In this document: positions 3,590 through 61,322 of the stretch, piece by piece | Layout: each line of letters starts with the position of its first letter | Position numbering within the stretch: position 1 is the stretch's first letter | Assembly (NCBI GenBank): GCA_964529405.1 | Contig: CAZGWE010000005.1 | Coordinates: forward strand, 1-62,128 | Length of the DNA: 62,128 nt | Origin: an uncultured Candidatus Saccharibacteria bacterium | GTDB lineage: Bacteria; Patescibacteriota; UBA1384; XYA2-FULL-43-10; 1-14-0-10-43-13 | Reading direction: 5' to 3' | Program-made: the position numbers and the translations under genes | The notes under the pieces: generated by a model | Databases searched by the model: none | The model's input: the letters and a program-made list of their open reading frames with translations, nothing else | What the model was told of the DNA's origin: nothing

Positions 3590-4546
3590 CTACATTCTAC
3601 AAATATCAACTACCAGTAAATCAAGCACCAGGCCCGGCACTGAACCGCTCTTGAGTTCATAGTCCGCTTGTTCTAATTTTAAATAGATACTCTCCAGCTT
3701 ATCGAGCGGATAAATCCTTAATAATGTTGCAAGTTTGCGAAAGACATAGGGGTTTATTCTGGTTAATTTAAGAATCTCCTGATCGCCCGCCCCGCTTGCC
3801 CTCAAATCAGCCGCGCTCAAGGCATGACGGAATTGATAAACAATCATGGTCAGAATGTAAATCTCGTTCTCTCCGGCCTCAATTAAGCGATGGAGAGCTT
3901 GGATGGATTCTTTTTCGTTCTTTTTGGCTAGCCAATCAATCAGGTCGAAAATCTTGACTTCGGAATTTGGCGCGACCATCAACTCAACGGATTTTTCGTC
4001 AATCCCGTCCACTCCGCGGGCACCGGCGTAAGCAATCAGCTTATTGGTTTCCTGATCCAGCCGCCAGAGGTCGGCGTCCACAAAGAGAATTAATTTTTCA
4101 ACCGCTTGCTGCGAAATGGTCAATTTAGCTTTATCGACTCTCGCGCGGATCCATCTTTGCAAAAAGGATCGGGGGAGCGGGGAAAATGTTTGGGCGATTT
4201 TCGGCTTATCGAGCGTTTTAAAAAGAACGGTGCGGGCATCCGGTAAACCCTCTTCGATAAAAAGAACAACGCTGGACTGCGGTATCTTGTCCAAATTATA
4301 GGCAATATATTTTTTGAGATCTAAATCCTTATTTTCCATAAGCAGATTAGTAATTTCAACCAGCTTTGTCTCCATCAGAAACGGCAGCGACAAAACCGCC
4401 TCGAGATAGTTCGCTTTGGTTAATTTAGCCCCGTCCAGACGGATATGATTAAAAAGAGCGTTTGAATCATTGTTGAATTTAGCTCGAAACGCCCTCACCT
4501 TTTCTTTTATAGAGTATGTGTCTTCACCGTAGAGAAAGAAATACAT
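3590..4546 (-). CDS. holA: DNA polymerase III delta subunit
   Basis: MYFFLYGEDTYSIKEK start and a length/helical C-terminus typical of HolA. The track ORF extends to a TTG at 4588; ATG 4546 is preferred. Confidence 0.7.
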   Translation of the reverse strand: MYFFLYGEDTYSIKEKVRAFRAKFNNDSNALFNHIRLDGAKLTKANYLEAVLSLPFLMETKLVEITNLLMENKDLDLKKYIAYNLDKIPQSSVVLFIEEGLPDARTVLFKTLDKPKIAQTFSPLPRSFLQRWIRARVDKAKLTISQQAVEKLILFVDADLWRLDQETNKLIAYAGARGVDGIDEKSVELMVAPNSEVKIFDLIDWLAKKNEKESIQALHRLIEAGENEIYILTMIVYQFRHALSAADLRASGAGDQEILKLTRINPYVFRKLATLLRIYPLDKLESIYLKLEQADYELKSGSVPGLVLDLLVVDICRM

Positions 4547-4634
4547 AAACACGAATGGATGACTAATAATCCGAATAACTAATAACAAATATATTGGTCA
4601 TTCGTCATTTGGTTAATTCGTTATCCATTTCTGG

Positions 4635-5909
4635 CTAGTGTTTAGCTTCTGCCCAATTACTACCGATTCCCACTTCGACCTCCAGCGGTACACATAATTT
4701 TACTACATTTTGCATCACCTCCTTAACCAGCTTAGCAACTTTTTCGGCATCCTCATCGCACACTTCAATTACCAATTCATCGTGCACCGTCAGAATCAGT
4801 TTTGATTTACTGTCTTGCTGTCTAGCTGTTTTGCTGTCTAGCTTTTTACTCAATTCGATCATCGCCAACTTCAGCACCTCCGCCGCCGTGCCCTGAACCG
4901 GCGCATTAACCGCCATCCGTTCCTCTGCCCCTGCCAGGCTGTGATTATGAGAATTGATATTCTTCATCGATCTTCGAAAGCCAAAAAGCGTTTCAACATA
5001 ACCTTTTTCTCTGGCTTCGCTGATCATCCGTTCGCAATATGCCTTAATGCCGATATGAGTCTCAAAATAACGCTTGATATATTGATAAGCCTTTTCCTGA
5101 TCAATTTTTAGAGCCTGCGATAAACCGTACGGGCTCATGCCGTAAAGCACGCCAAAGTTAACTGTCTTGGCCACCCGGCGCTGGTCTGATGTGACTTTAG
5201 CAATAGGAATATCAAAAATTTCAGAGGCCGTGGCGGTATGAATATCTTTTTTCGACTCAAATGCCTTCATCATAACCGGATCCTGAGATAAACAGGCGAC
5301 AATTCTTAATTCGATCTGAGAATAATCGGCCGAAATCAACTTGCAGCCTTGTGGCGCAATGAAAGCTTGCCTGATCTCCGTGCCCAGCTCGCCCTTAATA
5401 GGAATATTTTGCAAGTTCGGATTCGACGAGGTCATCCGACCGGTCGAAGTTTCTTGGCCGTAAGTGGTATGAAGTCTTGAATTTTTATCAACCATCTCGG
5501 GCAACGGTTTTAAGTATGTTGAAACTAATTTGGACAGTTCGCGATACTCGAGAATTGGTTTGATAATAGGATGCTTGTCTTCCAGTTTCGATAATCCCGA
5601 TGCTGCCGTCGATATGCCCGTCTTCGTCCGTTTTAAATCATCAGTCGGAAGTTTTAATTTCTTAAATAGCACATCGGCCATTTGCGAGGGCGAATTGATA
5701 TTGAATTCTTCCCCGGCCAATTTATATATCCGTGATTCGTAATTCTTAATTCGTAATTCGAGCTTTTTAGATAATTTCCGCAAAACATCACAATCAATCA
5801 TCACCCCGGTCTTCTCCATACCACGCAAAACCGGCTCAACATCTTTTGAGATTTTTTCCGAACTTATTTTAGGCAGCTTAACGCCATTTTCGCTCAAATG
5901 GGTCCACAT
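4635..5909 (-). CDS. polA: Family A DNA polymerase, polymerase domain only (split Pol I)
   Basis: Motif A DYSQIELR, motif B RRVAKTVNFGVLYG, motif C VHDEL. The N-terminus starts at the thumb (EEFNINSPSQMADVLF). No exonuclease domains. Confidence 0.88.
   Translation of the reverse strand: MWTHLSENGVKLPKISSEKISKDVEPVLRGMEKTGVMIDCDVLRKLSKKLELRIKNYESRIYKLAGEEFNINSPSQMADVLFKKLKLPTDDLKRTKTGISTAASGLSKLEDKHPIIKPILEYRELSKLVSTYLKPLPEMVDKNSRLHTTYGQETSTGRMTSSNPNLQNIPIKGELGTEIRQAFIAPQGCKLISADYSQIELRIVACLSQDPVMMKAFESKKDIHTATASEIFDIPIAKVTSDQRRVAKTVNFGVLYGMSPYGLSQALKIDQEKAYQYIKRYFETHIGIKAYCERMISEAREKGYVETLFGFRRSMKNINSHNHSLAGAEERMAVNAPVQGTAAEVLKLAMIELSKKLDSKTARQQDSKSKLILTVHDELVIEVCDEDAEKVAKLVKEVMQNVVKLCVPLEVEVGIGSNWAEAKH
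4811..4842. repeat. Octamer microsatellite (TGTCTTGC-like x4) inside polA
   Basis: tgtcttgc tgtctagc tgttttgc tgtctagc. Encodes the SKTARQQDSK insert just before motif C. Confidence 0.85.
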
Positions 5910-25988: not shown

Positions 25989-26762
25989 CTATTCCACCTC
26001 CAGCCCCCTAGACTGTACCCAAACCGACTCAAAAAACACTTGCATCGTTTGATAAAAACTAGTACTCGTAATAATCATTGCGTAAGGCTTCTCTTTTGTT
26101 TGAGAAAAAATAGCCACTTTATCATCATAGATGTGAATATGGCTCTCGGGTACGAACCACTCCGGAGCAATCCTAATCTGCCTGTTATCATCAGTCTCAG
26201 GCTTATATCGCCTGTAACCTGTTTTTTTATACTCTTCATTATCAGTCGCCAATCTTAAAGACCTATATACAATCTGGTGTTTTTTCGTTTCATCTAAATA
26301 GTTCGCAATAAATTCGTCACCCACGTGGCTGTGTCCAGATGCTCGAACGGGTATGGCATCAACTTTTTTACCAGTTGATTCCAGGGAGAGACGAAAAACT
26401 TCTTTGATACCCTCAACGCCCTCGAACATCTCCACCGCCGGCTTACCCTCCTCCTGTTTGTAAAGCGAGAAGAGGGCAGGAACGGCGTGTTCGATCGTAG
26501 CCAGCCTTGCCCGCATTATCTCTTGGAGTCGCGCCGGCGAAGCGGCAATGTAGTATTGATGCCTGTTTCGCTCAGTAATACTAATTAAACCAAGTCGGCG
26601 AAAATCATCCAGATAATTGTAAACAGTAGTCCTCTTAATACCGGCCCGCTGTGCAATCGGAATAATACTAGATTCCCCCAACTCCAACATAGCCAGATAT
26701 ACTTTGGCTTCTTTTTCGGTTAATCCGGCTTCTTTTAAAGATGTAAGTAAAGTGTTGTCCAT
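25989..26762 (-). CDS. TrmB-family transcriptional regulator (paralogue 1)
   Basis: LKEAGLTEKEAKVYLAMLELGESSIIPIAQRAGIKRTTVYNYLDDFRRLGLI wHTH. C-terminal domain ends ...FFESVW. Confidence 0.8.
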   Translation of the reverse strand: MDNTLLTSLKEAGLTEKEAKVYLAMLELGESSIIPIAQRAGIKRTTVYNYLDDFRRLGLISITERNRHQYYIAASPARLQEIMRARLATIEHAVPALFSLYKQEEGKPAVEMFEGVEGIKEVFRLSLESTGKKVDAIPVRASGHSHVGDEFIANYLDETKKHQIVYRSLRLATDNEEYKKTGYRRYKPETDDNRQIRIAPEWFVPESHIHIYDDKVAIFSQTKEKPYAMIITSTSFYQTMQVFFESVWVQSRGLEVE

Positions 26763-28584: not shown

Positions 28585-29349
28585 CTATCTTATCTCCTTC
28601 GGCTTCTTGGCAATCTCCCAAAGCAAATTAAACCTCTGCCGTTCGTCATATGCCAAGGCCGAACTTTCGATTACTGTGGCAAATGGATTACTTTCCGAGT
28701 GGGCGATATTGGCAATCGAATCGCCAAAGATAAAAGTGATTGTCCTGGGATCAAATTCCGGTCCTGGCACCAATCTTGTCTCCCGCAATTCGGGATCATC
28801 ATTTGATGCCAGTTCGCGATTAGGTTTATTATTTTCAAAAATAGCCCGGGCAAAAATTTTCTTCTTAGCCCGTTCGGCGATGAAAATTTTAAAATATTCC
28901 GAATAAGCAGTCTCGATCATATTTGTGCCAATAATCAATAATTCGCTGCCCTCCGGCTGATTCAGAACTAAGTTAAAGACCTGTTCTACGCCATGAGCAC
29001 CTTCATAAAGGCGTATTTTAGGTTTCTGGGCAGATTTACTACTTAAGGCGTCAAACTGAGCCAAACTTTGGCTAAACTGTTTTTTGCGCTGGTCAAAAGC
29101 CGCCAACAATTCTCGGGGATTTACAACCGAGTAGATCGTCCGCTTATTATCATTGGTTTTACTGGCATATCCCATTGACAATAAATCGTCGAGCACAACG
29201 TAACAGGTTGGCCGCTTTACGCCGCATTTTTGAGCAATGTCCCAAATAGAACTCGGCCCCAACTCCAAACAAGCCAAATAAACCTTGGCCTCATTTTCGC
29301 CCAAGCCGATCATGTTTAACGTTTGAATTAAATCTGTGTTTTGAGTCAT
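28585..29349 (-). CDS. TrmB-family transcriptional regulator (paralogue 2)
   Basis: LNMIGLGENEAKVYLACLELGPSSIWDIAQKCGVKRPTCYVVLDDLLSMGY. Confidence 0.8.
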   Translation of the reverse strand: MTQNTDLIQTLNMIGLGENEAKVYLACLELGPSSIWDIAQKCGVKRPTCYVVLDDLLSMGYASKTNDNKRTIYSVVNPRELLAAFDQRKKQFSQSLAQFDALSSKSAQKPKIRLYEGAHGVEQVFNLVLNQPEGSELLIIGTNMIETAYSEYFKIFIAERAKKKIFARAIFENNKPNRELASNDDPELRETRLVPGPEFDPRTITFIFGDSIANIAHSESNPFATVIESSALAYDERQRFNLLWEIAKKPKEIR

Positions 29350-39737: not shown

Positions 39738-39782
39738 AAAGTTCACTAACGCTTTGTGCTAATTAATATCTAACTCTATATA

Positions 39783-39903
39783 AATAATCTGTCATTTCGA
39801 CACCATTCGAGTCTGCTCGAAGGCGAGAAATCTACAAATTAATGAGCCAGAGTAAGCGGTAGATTTCTCGTCCCGATCGGAATCGGGATGTCAAAATGAC
39901 ATA
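39783..39903. repeat. Complete GTCATTTCGAC...GAAATCT hairpin element
   Basis: tgtcatttcgacaccattcgagtc...cgagaaatctac pairs with gtagatttctcgtcc...gtcaaaatgaca. The first 66 nt are identical to 42231-42296. Confidence 0.85.
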
Positions 39904-39971
39904 GTAATTAATGGGGAAATTGCGAATTTAATATTTTGCGGGCGATTTGCAAGATAGCTTCTGTTTTTATA

Positions 39972-40673
39972 TTACCTTCCTGTATATTTCTTAGCGTAAA
40001 TCCTCACCAAAAAAATCAGCTCGGATAATAATTTTTCCTTAACCCAAGCTTTTTGCTTCAGTTCGAGCAGTTCGCCCAAACCGTGCAGAATGTTAATTTT
40101 GTCCAACTTTTCCAGTTTGCCGGCTAAATCATCTAAAAACTCGCCCGTACCCATGCCGGTTTTTTCTTTGATCACTTTTTCGTCGATGGACCAATCGTTC
40201 TTGAGCATAAAATGAGCATCAAAAAGATCGCGGTTAGCAAAGCGCTTACGATTAAAAATGGCAATTAATTTATTAGCCAGCATGAATTCTTTCTTGGCAA
40301 TCAGCATGCTCAAACCATAATAGTTCTTAACCTCGTAGTTCTCCCTGCTGCCGGTCAGGCGCGAGATTTCAACCTTGACATTTTGTCTTTCCGACTCGTA
40401 ACTCAAACGCCAAAACAAGGTAAAATGCTTTATCCGGCTGTCTTTTACTTGGCCAAACTCCGGCAGTATCCGATCGATTTTCTTGAAAACCTCTGCGCCC
40501 TGATCATTCTCAAGCAGATCAAAGTCCAAATCAACCGAAAAACGAGGCAAATCGTAAAAAAGGTAGCAGGCCGTACCGCCCTTAAAACCCAAAAGAGGCG
40601 CCAGTTTATTGTCGCCATACAAAGCAAGTAAAATCTTATTCATTACCACATCGTGATCACCCCTATGAAGCAT
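39972..40673 (-). CDS. AbiEii/AbiGii-family nucleotidyltransferase toxin
   Basis: FKGGTACYLFYDLPRFSVDLDFDL motif, 233 aa. Confidence 0.8.
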   Translation of the reverse strand: MLHRGDHDVVMNKILLALYGDNKLAPLLGFKGGTACYLFYDLPRFSVDLDFDLLENDQGAEVFKKIDRILPEFGQVKDSRIKHFTLFWRLSYESERQNVKVEISRLTGSRENYEVKNYYGLSMLIAKKEFMLANKLIAIFNRKRFANRDLFDAHFMLKNDWSIDEKVIKEKTGMGTGEFLDDLAGKLEKLDKINILHGLGELLELKQKAWVKEKLLSELIFLVRIYAKKYTGR

Positions 40674-41238
40674 ATTCCTCCTTCAGTTTCTTAATGCGTT
40701 TAATCAGATTTTTATTGTCATAAATCAGACCGATCTTTAGACATTTTATCCAGTCAATATCAGACAAATTGTCAAAATAAAAGTCGCCCATCAGATAAAG
40801 GGTGTCGCAGATTGCCCGTTCTTTAGAAGCCACAGATTTTTCTCCGTCCTGGATAAGACCGAGAGGATCGAGTAAAGTCGGGTCTTTGATTTTCCGATAG
40901 ACAAATTCTTCCTTGCCGATTTTAATCGTCCGATTCACCCTGGCCGCCGAGTAGATCTTTGGATCGTACTGAAAAACTACTCCTTCCCGAGCCAGAACAG
41001 TCTCAAAACTGACATAAGAGGGCACAACCAGCTTATTAGCCAACTCTAATCGATCATAATTCCAATCTAGCGCATAAATTCCACCCCGAAGCCGAATCAA
41101 CTGCCCCGCCTTAGCCAACCGGTAAACTTTAGTTTTTAAATAGTCCCTGTCCGTGATTCCCCATAACAAAACCAGGTCATTCATGTCAAAGACCGTCTTC
41201 TTGCTTCTTATCAATGTAACCAGGCTTGATTCTTTCAT
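40663..41238 (-). CDS. AbiEi-like antitoxin/transcriptional regulator
   Basis: Overlaps the toxin start by 11 nt. AKAGQLIRLRGGIYAL wHTH pattern. Confidence 0.7.
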   Translation of the reverse strand: MKESSLVTLIRSKKTVFDMNDLVLLWGITDRDYLKTKVYRLAKAGQLIRLRGGIYALDWNYDRLELANKLVVPSYVSFETVLAREGVVFQYDPKIYSAARVNRTIKIGKEEFVYRKIKDPTLLDPLGLIQDGEKSVASKERAICDTLYLMGDFYFDNLSDIDWIKCLKIGLIYDNKNLIKRIKKLKEEYAS

Positions 41239-41319
41239 AATGTTATTTAAAAGTGATCAAAAATGATTACTTTTAATATACATTAACTAACACTCGTTGT
41301 CAAGTCAAAACAGCAATAT

Positions 41320-41359
41320 ATTCCAGAAATAGCAAGCGATCGCTTGCTATTTCTGGAAT
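41320..41359. repeat. 40-nt perfect palindrome with GCGATCGC centre
   Basis: attccagaaatagcaagcgatcgcttgctatttctggaat. Confidence 0.95.
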
Positions 41360-41440
41360 TTGAACGCAAAAAAACATCCCAAAACAAAAGAAAAAACCGC
41401 CGTGCCGAGGTGGCCGTGCGGTATAGGAATTGGAAAGCGT

Positions 41441-42070
41441 TTAGCTCTCCTCGGAAGGGGTGAGTGGCGGAGGATAGGCGGCGAGTTCCAGATTGTGCTT
41501 CTTCAGCCACTCCTGAATTTCAACCAGGGACTTTCTGCCAAAGTGTCTTGTACTCAGCAGCCCCTCCTCAGTCCACTCCAGCAACTGTTCAACCGTCTCG
41601 ATACCGAGATTCCGTAAACAGTTGCTGGTCCGAACAGAAAAGTCAGCTGCATCGACACGAGTCAGGCGAATCGTAGCCAGATCAACTAGAGCTGACTCCT
41701 CTTCCTCTTTATTTGCCTCCTGTTCGTTCAGCTTGGGCGGCTCTTTCAACTTCAGGCCGAGGCGCTGAAGCGCGTACTTGACTTCTTTCAGCTTTGCCCA
41801 ACTGAATGGACACCACATACGCAAGTCGTCCTCGGTCATCTGCAGCAGCCCCCCGATAGTCTCGATCCCGTGATCTCGGATGCTGGCCACAGTTGAGCTT
41901 GACATACCCAGTCCAGAAATGGGTATGTCCGCTTTTTCGCCCCCACCGGTACACTCTAGGATGAGCCGAGGAAGCCGTCGACGAAATTCGGCCACTTCCT
42001 CCGGCGTACCGATAACACGGTATGCCCACGAGATCAAGGTCTTTTCTGCACTCGATTCCGCGAGTTCCAT
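41441..42070 (-). CDS. Stand-alone protein with two RpoA alpha-CTD-like (HhH) repeats (cargo E)
   Basis: FSVRTSNCLRNLGIETVEQLLEWTEEGLLSTRHFGRKSLVEIQEWLKKHNLEL matches the alpha-CTD pattern. A degenerate first copy is at residues ~50-115. SD agaggagg. Confidence 0.65.
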   Translation of the reverse strand: MELAESSAEKTLISWAYRVIGTPEEVAEFRRRLPRLILECTGGGEKADIPISGLGMSSSTVASIRDHGIETIGGLLQMTEDDLRMWCPFSWAKLKEVKYALQRLGLKLKEPPKLNEQEANKEEEESALVDLATIRLTRVDAADFSVRTSNCLRNLGIETVEQLLEWTEEGLLSTRHFGRKSLVEIQEWLKKHNLELAAYPPPLTPSEES

Positions 42071-42230
42071 TCAATCACCTCCTCTCTTGGAATCAAGTAA
42101 TTTAACCAGATTACGAAAACTTTTTCAATGTTTTCACTTGATTTGTGATGAAATTTATGATAGTATTACAATCGATTTCACATCATATGATATTGACGCC
42201 TTGTACCAACTAATATTAACTCCTTAATAT

Positions 42231-42408
42231 AATAATCTGTCATTTCGACACCATTCGAGTCTGCTCGAAGGCGAGAAATCTACAAATTAATGAGCCCAAT
42301 TAAGTTGAATGAGATCCTCACGTCAGCTGATAAGAATCGGCTTCCTCAGGATGACATCAGAATGTCAGATTTCTCGCCTCCACCAGAGTGGATGGTGTCG
42401 AAATAACA
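42231..42408. repeat. Composite nested hairpin element
   Basis: Left half is identical to 39783-39848. A GATCCTCAC...CTCAGGATGACAT element (42311-42358) is inserted. The right half is gtcagatttctcgcc...ggtgtcgaaataaca. Confidence 0.8.
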
Positions 42409-42431
42409 AACAAGAGCGTATTGGAGTGTAC

Positions 42432-43166
42432 ATGCCTCATCGTGCCTTAAGACAAATTGGTTTGTCGCAGAAAGAAGCGGAAGTTTACGAAACACTGCTG
42501 AAAATCGGCGAATCGCCGGTGGCTGATTTGATCAAAGCCACAAATGACCACCCGCAGATTATTTACCGCGCACTTGATGGTCTAAATGCAATTGGTTTAA
42601 TAATCACGACCTACCGCAGACATCGCCGTTATGTGCGAGCTGAGGATCCGAAAGTGTTGGAAAAGATCGAAGAATCCAAGTTAAAAGAGATCAGAAAAAT
42701 CATCCCCGATCTCGCCGCACTCCAAAAAAACTCCTCCGATGCCATTGTTCGAATTAGCAAGGGCAATGAAGCATTGCGATCATTAAGAATTCGAGCTTAT
42801 GATGAATTAGCCAAAGATGAAGTCTATTATGTCATCGGCGCATCCGGCGATCGCTATTATGAAATCATGGGCGATTTGCAAACCGAAAATGAGCGCAAAA
42901 GAATCAAAAAAGGCGTCATCAAAAGAATGATCAGCTTCAAAAGCCAAAAAGAATTACTAGAGCAGCAAAACAAATATAGCCATTTAACTGAGTATCGCTA
43001 TTTAGCAGAAGAATTTTCTGTACCCTCAACTACAATAATCTTCAATGAGACTGCCGCCATCATCATCTGGAATCCCGAACCGATCGTTATCACTATCGAA
43101 TCGCCCGAGGTCGCCGAGAGCTACCGCCACTACTTTGAGTCCTTGTGGCAAATTGCCAAACCATAA
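42432..43166 (+). CDS. TrmB-family transcriptional regulator (paralogue 3)
   Basis: LRQIGLSQKEAEVYETLLKIGESPVADLIKATNDHPQIIYRALDGLNAIGLI. The track start at 42309 reads through the repeat element. Confidence 0.8.
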   Translation: MPHRALRQIGLSQKEAEVYETLLKIGESPVADLIKATNDHPQIIYRALDGLNAIGLIITTYRRHRRYVRAEDPKVLEKIEESKLKEIRKIIPDLAALQKNSSDAIVRISKGNEALRSLRIRAYDELAKDEVYYVIGASGDRYYEIMGDLQTENERKRIKKGVIKRMISFKSQKELLEQQNKYSHLTEYRYLAEEFSVPSTTIIFNETAAIIIWNPEPIVITIESPEVAESYRHYFESLWQIAKP

Positions 43167-43225
43167 ATTTGCATTAGCCAGATAATTAGATCTATATTGT
43201 TAGTGAAGTTAATTAAGGAACTCAC

Positions 43226-43717
43226 ATGCCATTCAGTGAACATGGAATACGAGCGACAATTGGAGCAGAACTACCGCCCGAAGCTCCCGAGAGATTAAGA
43301 ACGAAGCCAGAAGTTATCTTCGGCAACATTTTGGGCGTTGACCAAAGCGGTATAGCTACTGCTTGTACTGCAAGCATTAGAAACAAGACTAAGGCTTTGC
43401 GAATTCGACAGATAGAAGAATCTAAGGGCCAACATGTTGGCTCCGTTGATGCTCGAATCGACAAAATCCAAACCATGGGCAATGATGTTTTTGCCTCTAT
43501 TCGCCAAAACAGACACTTGCTCGAGAGCCGGCATGACGTAGAGCGGATCAGGGTTGAGTGGCTGGTTATGAAATGCTATGAGGAGATTCCACTGATTGTA
43601 GCAAGAGCCATTAATCGAGCCGACCTTGAAAGACAATCAAAGCGGCTTAAGCGCCAAATTTACGAAGAACGAATCACCAATCCCAGTCACGCCGCCCATC
43701 TTCAAAACGAAAAATAA
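43226..43717 (+). CDS. Hypothetical protein (possibly the N-part of an interrupted gene)
   Basis: 163 aa. Ends at TAA 43715, in the same frame as 43796-44548. Confidence 0.4.
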   Translation: MPFSEHGIRATIGAELPPEAPERLRTKPEVIFGNILGVDQSGIATACTASIRNKTKALRIRQIEESKGQHVGSVDARIDKIQTMGNDVFASIRQNRHLLESRHDVERIRVEWLVMKCYEEIPLIVARAINRADLERQSKRLKRQIYEERITNPSHAAHLQNEK

Positions 43718-43795
43718 ATAATTGAACAACAAATCGGTGAGCTCAATCATCCTGATGCTGTCTGGCAAATCCACCTTTCAGAGCTAATCGGCTAT

Positions 43796-44548
43796 TTGCG
43801 CTTGCTTCAGGGCCATGATCCTAAAACCGGTAGCCAAAGAGAGATTGTCGATCAATTCTGCTCTGATTTGTGGGACTCTCTGGAACACTTTGCCCAAGCT
43901 GCCACCTCGCCAGAGGAGGCAATGGCAATTGTCGATGAACGGAGAACGGGTATTGCCGGCCTCAGAGCTCTGATTGGTTTTTTTGAATCTGCCGGCATCA
44001 AGGCCTATTATCCGAAAATAGAAGACGAAAGAAGTGACCGGCCCACCTCAAAACAAGATGTGAGTGAGGGCTTTGACCTTTGGGTTACAGACGATACTGG
44101 CGCAGCTGCCATCGGAGTGCAGGTGAAGAGTCATCGAAGATTTAACAACAATGAGGAAGAGGAATTAACCGAGGATAAAAAAACTTCACGCTTAGAATTT
44201 CAACCAGTGACACCAGATTTGATAAGCCAAACGGAGGCAGAACTCCACAAACTCCGTCGGCGACAGAAGCAAGGAGAAGAGATTTCGACTGTCGCAATTC
44301 AACATAGGGAGAAAAAAGCAGGCCAAATGCGGGCTATGCTTGAAACATTGACAAAATCAGGTGTTTATAGTACTATTACGGACGCTGACCTAAGTGCCGG
44401 CTGGGTTGAGATCTGGGGTGTAAGCGACAAGGGCTCAATCGATCCCTTAACGGGCGAGATTGTCGAGGGATCCAGCCAGGACCTCGATCAAAGCCAAGTT
44501 GCCATACGCCTTAAGTCAATCCTAGCCTCGGGAGGGAATCATGAGTAA
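43796..44548 (+). CDS. Hypothetical protein, possible PD-(D/E)xK-like core
   Basis: 250 aa from a TTG with no SD. GFDLWVTDDTGAAAIGVQVKS is reminiscent of a nuclease core (weak). Confidence 0.35.
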   Translation: MRLLQGHDPKTGSQREIVDQFCSDLWDSLEHFAQAATSPEEAMAIVDERRTGIAGLRALIGFFESAGIKAYYPKIEDERSDRPTSKQDVSEGFDLWVTDDTGAAAIGVQVKSHRRFNNNEEEELTEDKKTSRLEFQPVTPDLISQTEAELHKLRRRQKQGEEISTVAIQHREKKAGQMRAMLETLTKSGVYSTITDADLSAGWVEIWGVSDKGSIDPLTGEIVEGSSQDLDQSQVAIRLKSILASGGNHE

Positions 44549-44735
44549 CGCCAACAGGCCGCCGGGCTTAGTCCCGGCCACCAATCCTTCTTTGCCGGAC
44601 TCCGACCTTGACATCTGCGAGTACTTCCGCCAGCAGATGGAGGGCAATCCGGAGTCCTACCCCGAACTGGCTCGGCTGCACCTCGAGGGGTGTGAGCCTT
44701 GTCGTGAATGGGAGAAGAGGAAACGCGGGCAGTAG
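44541..44735 (+). CDS. Small zf-HC2-like (anti-sigma-type zinc finger) protein
   Basis: 64 aa. HLEGCEPC fits H-x3-C-x2-C. Overlaps the previous ORF by 8 nt. Confidence 0.4.
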   Translation: MSNANRPPGLVPATNPSLPDSDLDICEYFRQQMEGNPESYPELARLHLEGCEPCREWEKRKRGQ

Positions 44736-44761
44736 CCCGCAGACATCGTCAGCGTCCTGAA

Positions 44762-44799
44762 ACGCCGTCAACCCGTCCCTCGGGTGGGCGGCGTATTTT
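44762..44799 (+). terminator. Rho-independent terminator
   Basis: ACGCCGtcaACCCGtccctCGGGTgggCGGCGTatttt. Confidence 0.65.
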
Positions 44800-44802
44800 G
44801 TT

Positions 44803-45034
44803 TCATATACTCAAATATTTTTCTACGCTCTCTTTATACCCATCCCGCATCGGATACCGGTCGATCTCTTTCGAGTCAATCCAGGCAAATTTCGAGTGCT
44901 CGTTGCTTAATTTCATATTCGATAGATCGGCTTCTGCCAGGTAATTCCCAATTTGTGCCATCATGCACAAACAAAAATTTGCCATCCCGGCAGAAGAGTG
45001 CTTTGACTGTAACTCGCTGAATTTGTTTTGGCAT
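44803..45034 (-). pseudogene. NUDIX hydrolase remnant (Nudix box deleted, frame broken)
   Basis: From ATG 45034: MPKQIQRVTVKALFCRDGKFLFVHDGTNWELPG, then out of frame. The 44803-44985 ORF supplies a NUDIX-like C-terminus (FAWIDSKEIDRYPM). No GX5EX7REUXEEXGU box. Confidence 0.5.
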
Positions 45035-45039
45035 TTTAT

Positions 45040-45065
45040 CTGTCATTCCTATGAAAACAGGAATC
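45040..45065. repeat. Short hairpin element
   Basis: ctgtcattcctatgaaaacaggaatc. Confidence 0.6.
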
Positions 45066-45091
45066 TTATTTAAGATTATCTGTTGACCGAA

Positions 45092-45154
45092 TGGATCCCC
45101 TGGTCATGGCCATGCCTGGCCCGAAGGGCGCCCTTCGGGCCCCGAGGATGACAA
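45092..45154. repeat. Hairpin element (reverse orientation)
   Basis: tggatcccctggtcatggccatgcctggcccgaagggcgcccttcgggccccgaggatgacaa. Confidence 0.65.
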
Positions 45155-45163
45155 GAAGGGGAG

Positions 45164-52483: not shown

Positions 52484-53257
52484 ATGAACACCGACCTATT
52501 AAAACAATTTGGTCTGTCGGCAAAAGAAGCTAGCATTTATTTGTCTTTGTTAGAGCTTGGAGCATCATCGGTCTCACAAATCGCCGTCAAAGCAAAAATT
52601 AACCGCACCACTGCATACGATATTTTGGAGGCACTGGTTCAATACGGCTTGGTAAGCTATGTCAAAGAGGAGACCAAAAAGCATTATGTGGCTGAAAACC
52701 CTGAGGCATTGGTCGGCTATTTAGAGAAAAAGGGCAGAGCATTGATTTCAAAGGCTTCTGAGGCCAAGAAAATATTACCGGAACTTAAAAGTGTCTATAA
52801 CTTAATCCCACATAAACCAAAGGTTAAATATTATGACGGCGAAGACGGTATTATCGCCATGTATGAAGATTCCCTTACTTCAAGATCAGAGATTTTGTCA
52901 TGGTTAGATCCAGAACGTACAGCCGACTTTTCAGAAGATTATTTTAGTCAATATTATAAACGCCGTGCTGAAAAAGGCATTCACATTAAAGCTATAGTTA
53001 ACGATGTGCCAATCTCGCACGAAATCAACTCACGCAACAAAGCAGAGGATAGAGAGATGAAAATAATCCCCCGCCAGATGATGGATATTGTGCCTGAGTG
53101 CTACGTATATGATGACAAAGTTGCCTTTATGTCCCTTCGTGAAAAGTTTGGCGTTATGATCGAATCCAAAGACATCGCCAAAGCCCTCCGCAAGCTTTAT
53201 GAACTCGCTTGGAAGCATGCGGGGGAAATTGATAAAGCAAGTCAGCGGAACAGCTAG
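52484..53257 (+). CDS. TrmB-family transcriptional regulator (paralogue 4)
   Basis: LKQFGLSAKEASIYLSLLELGASSVSQIAVKAKINRTTAYDILEALVQYGLV. Confidence 0.85.
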   Translation: MNTDLLKQFGLSAKEASIYLSLLELGASSVSQIAVKAKINRTTAYDILEALVQYGLVSYVKEETKKHYVAENPEALVGYLEKKGRALISKASEAKKILPELKSVYNLIPHKPKVKYYDGEDGIIAMYEDSLTSRSEILSWLDPERTADFSEDYFSQYYKRRAEKGIHIKAIVNDVPISHEINSRNKAEDREMKIIPRQMMDIVPECYVYDDKVAFMSLREKFGVMIESKDIAKALRKLYELAWKHAGEIDKASQRNS

Positions 53258-54717: not shown

Positions 54718-55488
54718 ATGAATGACCAATACAAAAGTGAGGAACTGGAAAAAGAACTGCTTGACTATGGCCTCACCAGCAAACAAGCGCGAGTCTATTT
54801 AGCTTTGTTGCAGTTAGGCACTTCTAATATCCAAGCTATTGCCGAGAAGGCGCGCGTTGAGAGAACAAATACTTATGATGCCGTTCAAGGATTGATTGAT
54901 CGCCGGCTGATCAGCATCACTACGCAAGGCAAAAAACGGCTATTTGTGGCTGAGCCGCCCGAATCGTTAGAGGTCATCATCAAAGAAAAGGCAAAGAAAC
55001 TTAAAGACCTTTTGCCTGAACTCAGATCGCTCCATAATATTTCCGAATTCAAGCCCAAAATCCGCTTTTATCCAGGAGTTGAGGGTTACAAAGCAGTTTA
55101 TGAGGATACCCTCTCCGCTTCAAGCAAGTTGCTCTTTGGCATATACTCCAGCCAAGATATTATCGATGTTTTGGGCATGGACTTTATTCGCCACATAATT
55201 GAGCAGCGGGTAGAAAAGAAAATCACTCTCCGCGTTATTCGACCCAGAGAGACAGAGGTACCCGGTCTTTGGCCGGCCGGCGAAGAAGCACTAAGGGAAG
55301 TAAAACTAGCCCCCAAGGGAATGGTTTTCCCGATTGTAACCTTTGTTTACGACAACAAAGTCATCTATCTCTCATCAAAAAAAGAGACCTTTGGTCTCAT
55401 TATTGAAAGCCATGACATGGCCCAGGCTCATCAGAACTATTTTGAGGCTCTGTGGCAGATTAGTACGGAGATGCCGATAGTAAAATAA
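54718..55488 (+). CDS. TrmB-family transcriptional regulator (paralogue 5)
   Basis: LLDYGLTSKQARVYLALLQLGTSNIQAIAEKARVERTNTYDAVQGLIDRRLI. Ends YFEALWQIS. Confidence 0.85.
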   Translation: MNDQYKSEELEKELLDYGLTSKQARVYLALLQLGTSNIQAIAEKARVERTNTYDAVQGLIDRRLISITTQGKKRLFVAEPPESLEVIIKEKAKKLKDLLPELRSLHNISEFKPKIRFYPGVEGYKAVYEDTLSASSKLLFGIYSSQDIIDVLGMDFIRHIIEQRVEKKITLRVIRPRETEVPGLWPAGEEALREVKLAPKGMVFPIVTFVYDNKVIYLSSKKETFGLIIESHDMAQAHQNYFEALWQISTEMPIVK

Positions 55489-60539: not shown

Positions 60540-61322
60540 TTACAACCGATCCCAGATGAATTCGAAGTACTTCTGCCAGGTTTGGGCTATGACGGTGCTT
60601 TCTGTGATTGAAAAGAAGAGAGTGCGGGAGTCGTAGAGAATGATGTGATTTTTAGTTATAACGACTGAGCCTGGGTTAGCGTATTTGTCATCGATGAATT
60701 TGATCTCAGATCGAGGCAGGTTATAACGTGTCACGATGTATGGGTCGCCCGCATTGCCATCTCCGGGTAATTTTTGTGATTTGGGCAAAATTGTGCGCAA
60801 ATGGAGACCTAACTGCTCCTTGGGCGGAGAAAAGTACATAAACGCATCACCCGCTGAAGTTATCTTTCTAAACGAAGCCCCAAATATACAAATGTTATTG
60901 TCGGGTGTCTGCAGGGTCTTAAACAGCTCGTAAGTACGATCATAAAATTTGTTAACTTCTTCCTCGCCCTGAAAATACTCAACAATCGATTTGCTAGTCT
61001 CGCGTGAAAAGTGTTCCTGAAGTTTGGGAAGGATTTTGTTCAAGTCTCTCTCTTTTTGCTTGACCATAAGCTTCAAGTTCTCAGGATCTGAGGGTAAATA
61101 AATGGTCCTCTTGCCGCGTGAGGCGGTTTTTAGCAAGCCATCGCGTAAAAGTTTATCGATGTGATAATAAATGCCGGTACGCTCGATCTCGCCATTCTCA
61201 GCGATCTCGCTCACCGTACCGCCGCCAAGATCTATGGCAGATAAATAAATAAGCGCCTCTTTTTGGCTCAAACCCAGATTTATAAGAGCATCAAGCTCAA
61301 TTTTTGTGTTAAACTTTTTCAC
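60540..61322 (-). CDS. TrmB-family transcriptional regulator (paralogue 6)
   Basis: LINLGLSQKEALIYLSAIDLGGGTVSEIAENGEIERTGIYYHIDKLLRDGLL. Ends YFEFIWDRL. Confidence 0.85.
   Translation of the reverse strand: MKKFNTKIELDALINLGLSQKEALIYLSAIDLGGGTVSEIAENGEIERTGIYYHIDKLLRDGLLKTASRGKRTIYLPSDPENLKLMVKQKERDLNKILPKLQEHFSRETSKSIVEYFQGEEEVNKFYDRTYELFKTLQTPDNNICIFGASFRKITSAGDAFMYFSPPKEQLGLHLRTILPKSQKLPGDGNAGDPYIVTRYNLPRSEIKFIDDKYANPGSVVITKNHIILYDSRTLFFSITESTVIAQTWQKYFEFIWDRL

Follow-up and report, generated by a model that had tools for sequence, protein, structure and literature searches.

The stretch of DNA analysed here (the window, 62,128 nucleotides (nt) from an uncultured Candidatus Saccharibacteria bacterium, to which all coordinates and the numbering of TrmB genes refer) carries on its minus strand a gene for a 209-residue protein, P0001, made of two copies of the C-terminal domain of the RNA polymerase alpha subunit (alpha-CTD) and encoded head-to-head with TrmB-3, a regulator of the TrmB family. 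P0001 is a genuine alpha-CTD-type protein that belongs to the free alpha-CTD proteins, a class that is widespread but unstudied; its architecture, which combines one intact and one degenerate repeat, is new. Regarding its function, which we infer, the reading that we favour, although tentatively, is that of a trans-acting DNA-binding accessory regulator of the alpha-CTD type, which may be controlled by TrmB-3 or work together with it. This reading is based on the observed domain identity, fold, residue conservation, location on an accessory island and recurrent pairing with TrmB genes.

41441..42070, minus strand: gene for the stand-alone double alpha-CTD protein P0001 (open reading frame list, translation, PF03118 and AlphaFold)

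The open reading frame (ORF) runs from an ATG at 42070 to a TAA at 41441-41443, exactly as delimited in a preliminary description of this DNA, which had recognised two alpha-CTD-like repeats, the C-terminal one close to the RpoA pattern and preceded by a more diverged copy, in a protein devoid of the N-terminal domain of the alpha subunit (alpha-NTD). Profile searches bear out each of these points. The Pfam family PF03118 (RNA_pol_A_CTD) matches P0001 in two stretches with an E-value of 1.4e-24 and 86 bits (gathering cut-off 23.8), and in a six-frame search of the genome both repeats exceed the cut-off separately, with 64.4 bits for the C-terminal repeat (repeat 2) and 25.7 bits for the preceding one (repeat 1). 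All 52 matches obtained with phmmer against the PDB are RpoA chains. Many alpha-CTDs are recovered with residues 134-197 (best E 8e-10), and the Thermus alpha-CTD 1doq with residues 45-110 (E 1.3e-6). The rpoA models of NCBIfam align to P0001 by their C-terminal 80 positions alone, TIGR02027 being covered at positions 219-296 only, with 90.7 bits against a cut-off of 227.8; since the alpha-NTD is absent, P0001 cannot be a subunit of RNA polymerase.

The fold leads to the same assignment. A model of P0001 built with AlphaFold2 on a 36-sequence alignment has a mean predicted local distance difference test score (pLDDT) of 87.7, which rises to 94-98 within both repeats, and according to DSSP the two repeats display an identical helix pattern. 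When the model was compared with the PDB using Foldseek, the significant matches were exclusively RpoA alpha-CTDs, with TM scores for repeat 2 of 0.94 (1z3e_B) and 0.92 (1lb2_E) and a root mean square deviation (rmsd) of 0.9-1.0 Å. These results bear directly on a different explanation, namely that P0001 is a generic helix-hairpin-helix (HhH) protein of the DNA-repair or DNA-uptake type, unrelated to transcription. The profiles HHH_5, RAD51D_N and POLH-Rev1_HhH do match it weakly, but their 17-18 bits fall below cut-offs of 27 bits, whereas PF03118 reaches 86 bits, and both the sequence matches in the PDB and the significant fold matches are all RpoA alpha-CTDs. Taking the Pfam scores, phmmer and Foldseek together, we consider this explanation very improbable and effectively refuted: no other HhH family is assigned, and the alpha-CTD assignment is specific. 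A search of PHROGs with P0001 returned nothing meaningful.

Four parts can be distinguished along the protein:

41936..42070, minus strand: N-terminal helical hairpin, residues 1-45, with helices at 7-20 and 23-40 (DSSP on the model, pLDDT 72-81)
41741..41935, minus strand: degenerate alpha-CTD (repeat 1), residues 46-110 (PF03118 25.7 bits; 1doq; pLDDT 94-96)
41660..41740, minus strand: acidic, partly helical linker, residues 111-137 (helix 116-135 in the model; isoelectric point (pI) 4.3)
41480..41659, minus strand: canonical alpha-CTD (repeat 2), residues 138-197 (PF03118 64.4 bits; Foldseek TM 0.92-0.94)

Both repeats were aligned to E. coli RpoA (taken from NC_000913.3), in which R265, N268, C269, G296, K298 and S299 are the DNA-contact residues of the established literature, the "265 determinant". 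Repeat 2 retains all six, as R147, N150, C151, G178, K180 and S181, respectively, while repeat 1 keeps none, having S, A, S, S, A and K at these positions. In 36 diverse non-RpoA alpha-CTD proteins, the arginine and the glycine equivalent to R265 and G296 show a conservation of 90% or more. With its contact residues preserved, repeat 2 may plausibly bind DNA.

Conservation is highest in the other half of the protein. P0002, the only full-length relative found among 5.8 billion clustered proteins, has 204 residues, is 66-68% identical to P0001 and is encoded on a 1261-bp contig. Hairpin and repeat 1 are 80% and 83% identical between both proteins, compared with 62% for repeat 2 and 22% for the linker, a distribution that argues for selection on the half that does not bind DNA. 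Judging from these comparisons, the DNA-dead half (hairpin plus repeat 1) is under the tightest constraint, which points to a role in protein-protein interaction, and the pseudo-alpha-CTD probably serves as a protein-protein or dimerisation surface. The hairpin is lineage-specific: it recurs in P0002 and, as a weak match (domain E 7e-4), in a single-CTD protein of G017 only, a genome of the same family (genomes, contigs and loci carry our labels G, C and L). Since the G017 protein consists of the hairpin motif and one alpha-CTD of the repeat-2 type, repeat 1 seems to have been inserted into an earlier architecture made up of hairpin and alpha-CTD. A scan of metagenomes with the alignment of P0001 and P0002 gave one distant domain-level match only.

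At the level of the domain, relatives are abundant. A HMMER pass over 1.84 billion representative proteins recovered 4544 proteins (E ≤ 1e-3). The majority are not RpoA, and many of them contain tandem arrays of 2-12 alpha-CTDs; the best matches are non-RpoA proteins that consist purely of alpha-CTD repeats or are fused to tetratricopeptide repeats (TPR) or sigma-70 region 4, and residues 47-197 of P0001 align as one unit to many multi-repeat proteins. ESM-Atlas and BFVD contain clusters of 98-240-residue proteins annotated as "alpha subunit C-terminal domain-containing" from Planctomycetota, Bacillota and tailed phages. A tblastn search of phage sequences in GenBank gave domain-level matches only, at 37-45% identity and in some cases to host rpoA in contaminated records, hence the alpha-CTD gene is not visibly phage-derived. 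Proteins with the alpha-CTD alone recur in relatives from the class of the window's genome, in other bacteria and in phages. From the interpretation given in the preliminary description, the alpha-CTD identity, the link with TrmB-3 and the plausible DNA binding by repeat 2 are maintained, but P0001 is less unusual than was supposed, with thousands of mostly non-RpoA proteins in the HMMER set and small alpha-CTD proteins encoded by phages. The decoy or competitor role suggested there found no support. In the literature we found no functional study of stand-alone alpha-CTD proteins, nor do these appear in a 2026 review of alpha-like subunits.

Within the class of the window's genome, PF03118 is matched at E ≤ 1e-5 in 75 of 162 genomes. 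In five genomes whose rpoA has no PF03118 match (G046, G048, G061, G062 and G069) RpoA, in frames of 271-281 residues, aligned only to positions 1-231 of the 298-position model, which implies an RpoA without CTD; one such gene lies at G062:C1:590950-591636, and G061 encodes two free alpha-CTD genes (203- and 133-residue frames) along with its CTD-less RpoA. A phylum sample of 401 genomes, which includes the unpublished genome G309 (none of our particular claims depends on it), contains approximately 46 genomes (hand count) with at least two PF03118 matches. Tandem free alpha-CTD genes of about 138 and 260-275 residues, with no TrmB gene nearby, were observed in two lineages unrelated to each other (L024, G099:C1, 3947-5364; L033, G103:C9, 3944-5286). 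In the 78% complete genome G349, the RpoA NTD (199-residue ORF) and the alpha-CTD (119-residue frame) occupy adjacent separate frames (L070, G349:C3, about 4001-5012), a case of split or frameshifted rpoA.

A canonical rpoA does exist elsewhere in the genome that harbors P0001. The assembly (936 kb in 30 contigs, 98% complete, a size typical of a genome of the Patescibacteria or Candidate Phyla Radiation (CPR)) encodes on contig C17 a 319-residue RpoA with its own CTD (TIGR02027, 297 bits). Repeat 2 is 32% identical to this host CTD and about 40% identical to the CTDs of Firmicutes, Actinobacteria and E. coli; the identity with solved CTDs is 38-41% according to Foldseek, and approximately 42% with the B. 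subtilis CTD when counted from the phmmer alignment. Likewise, the PF03118 score of repeat 2 is 64 bits against 52 bits for the host RpoA CTD, where C269 is replaced by A and S299 by G. A recent duplication of the tail of the host rpoA was considered and ruled out, given the 32% identity to the host CTD versus about 40% to those of other phyla, and the same low identity argues against mimicry of the cell's own polymerase.

This divergence also bears on an alternative in which P0001 works mainly through protein contacts, as a competitor or anti-activator that titrates regulators or sigma region 4, or occupies UP elements. The alpha-CTD fold and surface are retained, the patch of repeat 2 that contacts sigma keeps D258 and carries only a conservative change of E261 to D, and a strongly conserved repeat that does not bind DNA suits protein binding; moreover, half of the class has an RpoA without CTD, so that the roles of the domain are in flux there. 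A host RpoA CTD that departs from repeat 2 in overall identity and at positions 269 and 299, however, makes shared partner surfaces doubtful, and we regard this alternative as unlikely, if conceivable.

The partner that recurs beside free alpha-CTD genes is a TrmB regulator. In the window it is the divergent neighbour already pointed out in the preliminary description, located on the opposite strand at a distance of 239-361 bp:

42309..43166, plus strand: TrmB-3, winged helix-turn-helix regulator of the TrmB family, divergent partner of the alpha-CTD gene (PF01978, 35.9 bits)

The actual start of TrmB-3 is probably Met42 (42432) and not 42309, as judged from the length of its paralogs (251-260 residues) and from the repeat element that occupies 42231-42408. 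We scanned about 20 non-RpoA alpha-CTD loci of the class with a hidden Markov model made from the eight TrmB paralogs of the genome. Seven of them, from four families, are arranged head-to-head with a TrmB gene at 143-897 bp (G000, G027, G031, G043 C105, G043 C140, G032 and G141), so that the arrangement of the window recurs in six further loci of the class; two of the seven have one small orphan between the two genes. With 2-9 TrmB paralogs per genome, the sequence up to 1.5 kb from such a gene makes up approximately 3% of a genome, and a rough binomial estimate (five independent cases in 17 locus types, p = 0.034) gives a P of 2e-4, which the relatedness of the genomes makes approximate.

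The pairing is coherent with the phylogeny of the regulators. In a tree of 35 TrmB paralogs, TrmB-3 belongs to a clade of five with 99% support in the Shimodaira-Hasegawa-like approximate likelihood ratio test (SH-aLRT), which includes the alpha-CTD-adjacent TrmB proteins of G043 C140 and G032, and a second clade groups three TrmB proteins encoded beside 124-residue alpha-CTD genes (one genus) with the other TrmB of the G032 locus. The label "adjacent" requires three changes on the tree against a mean of 5.6 after shuffling, and none of 500 shuffles was as low. The TrmB/alpha-CTD pairs of G032 and G043 have in common a palindrome in which two TTGACA -35 boxes lie back-to-back, each accompanied by a matching -10 box. 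These regions lie at 3526-3802 of L021 (G032:C58) and 1439-1581 of L032 (G043:C140), with the -10 box 17 nt from each -35, and in G032 the symmetry reaches about 20 nt to either side, so that the divergent promoter is almost perfectly symmetric. An operator common to these two loci and the window was looked for by comparison of the intergenic regions and none was found. In G141 the TrmB gene beside a 112-residue alpha-CTD gene (L028, G141:C3, 2146-2933) is split into ORFs of 155 and 102 residues, due to a frameshift, a pseudogene or an assembly error. A general link between TrmB and free alpha-CTD genes throughout the phylum was also considered, and was ruled out by the loci sampled from other classes (see below).

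The 0.94-Mb genome encodes eight TrmB paralogs, six of them inside the window:

25989-26762, 28585-29349, 42309-43166, 52484-53257, 54718-55488 and 60540-61322: TrmB paralogs of the window

Most of these face or adjoin orphan or accessory genes, such as a DUF559 nuclease, a radical-SAM protein and several genes with no Pfam match. We found no paper on TrmB regulators in Patescibacteria.

The alpha-CTD gene possesses its own expression signals:

42075..42083, minus strand: Shine-Dalgarno sequence AGGAGGTGA, 4 nt upstream of the ATG (read from the sequence)
42099..42128, minus strand: candidate promoter of the alpha-CTD gene, TTGAAA, 18-nt spacer, TAAATT (consensus scan only)
42143-42172, plus strand: candidate promoter of TrmB-3, back-to-back with the candidate alpha-CTD promoter (consensus scan only)
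42115-42135: putative imperfect palindrome GAAAACTTT/AATGTTTTC overlapping the -35
41381..41422, minus strand: intrinsic terminator, a GC-rich hairpin followed by a U-run (RNA fold of 41290-41450, minus strand, z-score -6.6)
41320..41359, no strand: perfect 40-bp palindrome around a GCGATCGC core, flanked by the alpha-CTD terminator and the AbiEi promoter

A strong Shine-Dalgarno sequence, a terminator and a high G+C content had been ascribed to this gene, and all three are found: its G+C content of 0.543, compared with 0.456 genome-wide, ranks in the top 3.8% of 630-bp windows of the genome, and the terminator hairpin begins 19 nt past the stop codon. The 40-bp palindrome has two related copies at 87.5% identity on contig C12 (C12:24161-24200 and C12:25083-25122), which makes it a dispersed element rather than one particular to the alpha-CTD gene; these copies are about 0.9 kb apart and near another TrmB paralog (C12:26851-27627).

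We infer DNA binding, partner contacts and regulation by TrmB-3 as follows. The alpha-CTD gene would be expressed from a back-to-back divergent promoter pair shared with TrmB-3, which probably controls both promoters. Repeat 2 would then dock on A/T-rich, UP-element-like DNA through the minor groove, as the RpoA alpha-CTD does, while the hairpin and the pseudo-domain would hold a partner, be it P0001 itself, TrmB-3, or the polymerase or its sigma factor. The outcome would be a modulation of transcription at a few promoters, acting in trans.

The gene is not a single-copy core gene like that for RpoA; it sits in an insertion that is missing from six genomes of the same family, next to AbiE, a toxin-antitoxin or abortive-infection pair:

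39738..45163, no strand: 5.4-kb accessory island between dnaE and a bPH-domain gene (comparison with six same-family genomes)
39972-40673 and 40663-41238, minus strand: AbiEii and AbiEi, respectively, downstream neighbours of the alpha-CTD gene (Pfam, PADLOC)
39783..39848, plus strand: 66-nt direct repeat, left copy (sequence identity)
42231..42296, plus strand: 66-nt direct repeat, right copy, in the intergenic region between the alpha-CTD gene and TrmB-3 (sequence identity)

The island holds AbiEii, AbiEi, the alpha-CTD gene, TrmB-3 and orphans of 163, 250 and 64 residues, and in the six genomes without it dnaE is followed by the bPH, MraY-like, o201 and o407 genes within 0.2-1.2 kb. Used as query, P0001 was matched in only one other genome of the 22 in the family, and there in a different form. 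G013 has a different 263-residue ORF at the position of the island, and the gap between dnaE and bPH appears to be prone to swapping. The adjacent AbiE pair of the preliminary description was confirmed by Pfam (AbiEii E 1.2e-18) and PADLOC (195 bits for AbiEii and 160 bits for AbiEi). The two 66-nt repeats, which bracket AbiEii, AbiEi and the alpha-CTD gene, are 100% identical, while other copies in the genome are at 87-93% and the remainder of the two repeat elements is about 76% alike; from its sequence, the pair looks more like a recombination junction than like two independent insertions.

Such a neighbourhood raises the question of a role in defence, where a free alpha-CTD imitates the polymerase domain targeted by phages, and either soaks up a phage factor or reports the attack to AbiE. 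Phages do target the alpha-CTD, as in the ADP-ribosylation of R265 by T4. The gene immediately precedes a strong AbiEi/AbiEii pair inside the segment bracketed by the identical repeats, in a region that is entirely an accessory island, and an alpha-CTD-like segment is present in PglW, the kinase of type 2 BREX (NCBIfam E 7.4e-8, PADLOC E 1.8e-8). That match is limited to the domain: P0001 aligns to positions 784-871 only of about 1400, with 30.6 bits against a cut-off of 990, and no PADLOC family covers P0001 beyond it. Besides, the alpha-CTD gene has its own terminator and AbiEi its own candidate promoter, indicating separate transcription units, and in the loci examined no AbiE was found beside other free alpha-CTD genes; thus P0001 does not qualify as a third AbiE component. 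Considering, in addition, that repeat 2 resembles the host RpoA CTD at only 32% identity, we judge this role distinctly unlikely.

Returning to the trans-acting regulator associated with TrmB-3, several observations weigh against it. Regarding the protein, a lone alpha-CTD binds DNA weakly by itself, P0001 as a whole is acidic (pI 5.0), and the N268 equivalent is a serine in P0002, its sole full-length ortholog. Regarding the partnership, the palindrome of G032 and G043 is absent from the intergenic region of the window, which a repeat element interrupts; two regulators of the TrmB-3 clade are encoded opposite unrelated orphans, so that TrmB may just regulate any cargo placed opposite; about 13 free alpha-CTD loci of the class have no TrmB gene within 4 kb, and neither does any of eight loci from other classes (four with stand-alone and four with fused non-RpoA alpha-CTDs). 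Among the alpha-CTD proteins paired with TrmB, the N-terminal parts bear no relation to one another, and the identical 66-nt repeats link the alpha-CTD gene physically to AbiE and not to TrmB-3. Given the clade members that face orphans, the window devoid of the palindrome and the other classes devoid of TrmB, the safest reading of the pairing is "TrmB plus variable divergent cargo", where free alpha-CTD proteins are a recurrent cargo of particular TrmB clades.

A bolder reading, which we find very doubtful, is that TrmB and the free alpha-CTD constitute a portable two-gene module for promoter control. The detached alpha-CTD would there either provide the contacts with upstream DNA and activators that the polymerase normally makes with its own tail, or compete for them, and the degenerate repeat would be an adaptor to the regulator or to the polymerase. 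The setting is a class in which about half of the genomes have an RpoA without alpha-CTD (75 of 162 with any PF03118 match).

In the textbook view, bacterial polymerase contacts UP elements and class I activators through its alpha-CTD. Free copies of this domain occur widely among uncultivated bacteria and phages, but we found no study of their role. P0001 offers several handles on this matter: a DNA-competent and a DNA-dead repeat in one protein, a conserved half that does not bind DNA and should have a partner, and a recurrent, phylogenetically coherent pairing with one TrmB subgroup, all of it in a lineage whose polymerase often has no alpha-CTD of its own. If the TrmB pairing is functional, it would represent promoter regulation built from detachable polymerase parts; if it is not, P0001 would be just another accessory DNA-binding protein encoded on an island prone to swapping. 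The points that merit experimental work are the TrmB pairing and the conservation of the DNA-dead repeat.

Compared with known systems, P0001 is closest in structure to the RpoA alpha-CTD (PF03118; 1LB2, 1Z3E, 3K4G and 9ZUM), with which it shares the fold (TM 0.8-0.94, rmsd about 1 Å) and, in repeat 2, the DNA-contact residues; the sequence identity to solved CTDs is 38-41%. Unlike RpoA, it has no alpha-NTD and carries two CTD copies per chain, one of them stripped of its DNA contacts, and its gene is located on an accessory island, unlike the rpoA of contig C17. The small non-RpoA alpha-CTD proteins (from Mycobacterium phage Mithril, Rhodococcus phage Finch and uncultured Caudovirales, and the ESM-Atlas clusters of 123-188 residues) resemble P0001 in having a variable, mostly helical N-terminus and the alpha-CTD near the C-terminus; P0001 differs from them by a further alpha-CTD, the degenerate one, which follows the hairpin and precedes the canonical domain, and by the TrmB pairing, which among the loci sampled was seen only in the window's class. 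Tandem modules are shared with the multi-repeat and fused proteins (2-12 copies; TPR with two alpha-CTDs; alpha-CTDs with sigma-70 region 4; BREX PglW), but in the multi-repeat proteins scanned all repeats are strong, with 150-250 bits in total, whereas P0001 has one degenerate repeat and no TPR, sigma-4 or kinase parts. Finally, the pair formed by the alpha-CTD gene and TrmB-3 shows the organization of divergent regulator/target pairs of the TrmB family (PF01978), that is, a head-to-head orientation, a short intergenic region and back-to-back promoters, which here are candidates. Characterised archaeal TrmB proteins regulate genes of sugar metabolism, unlike the TrmB paralogs of the window, which face orphan or accessory genes.

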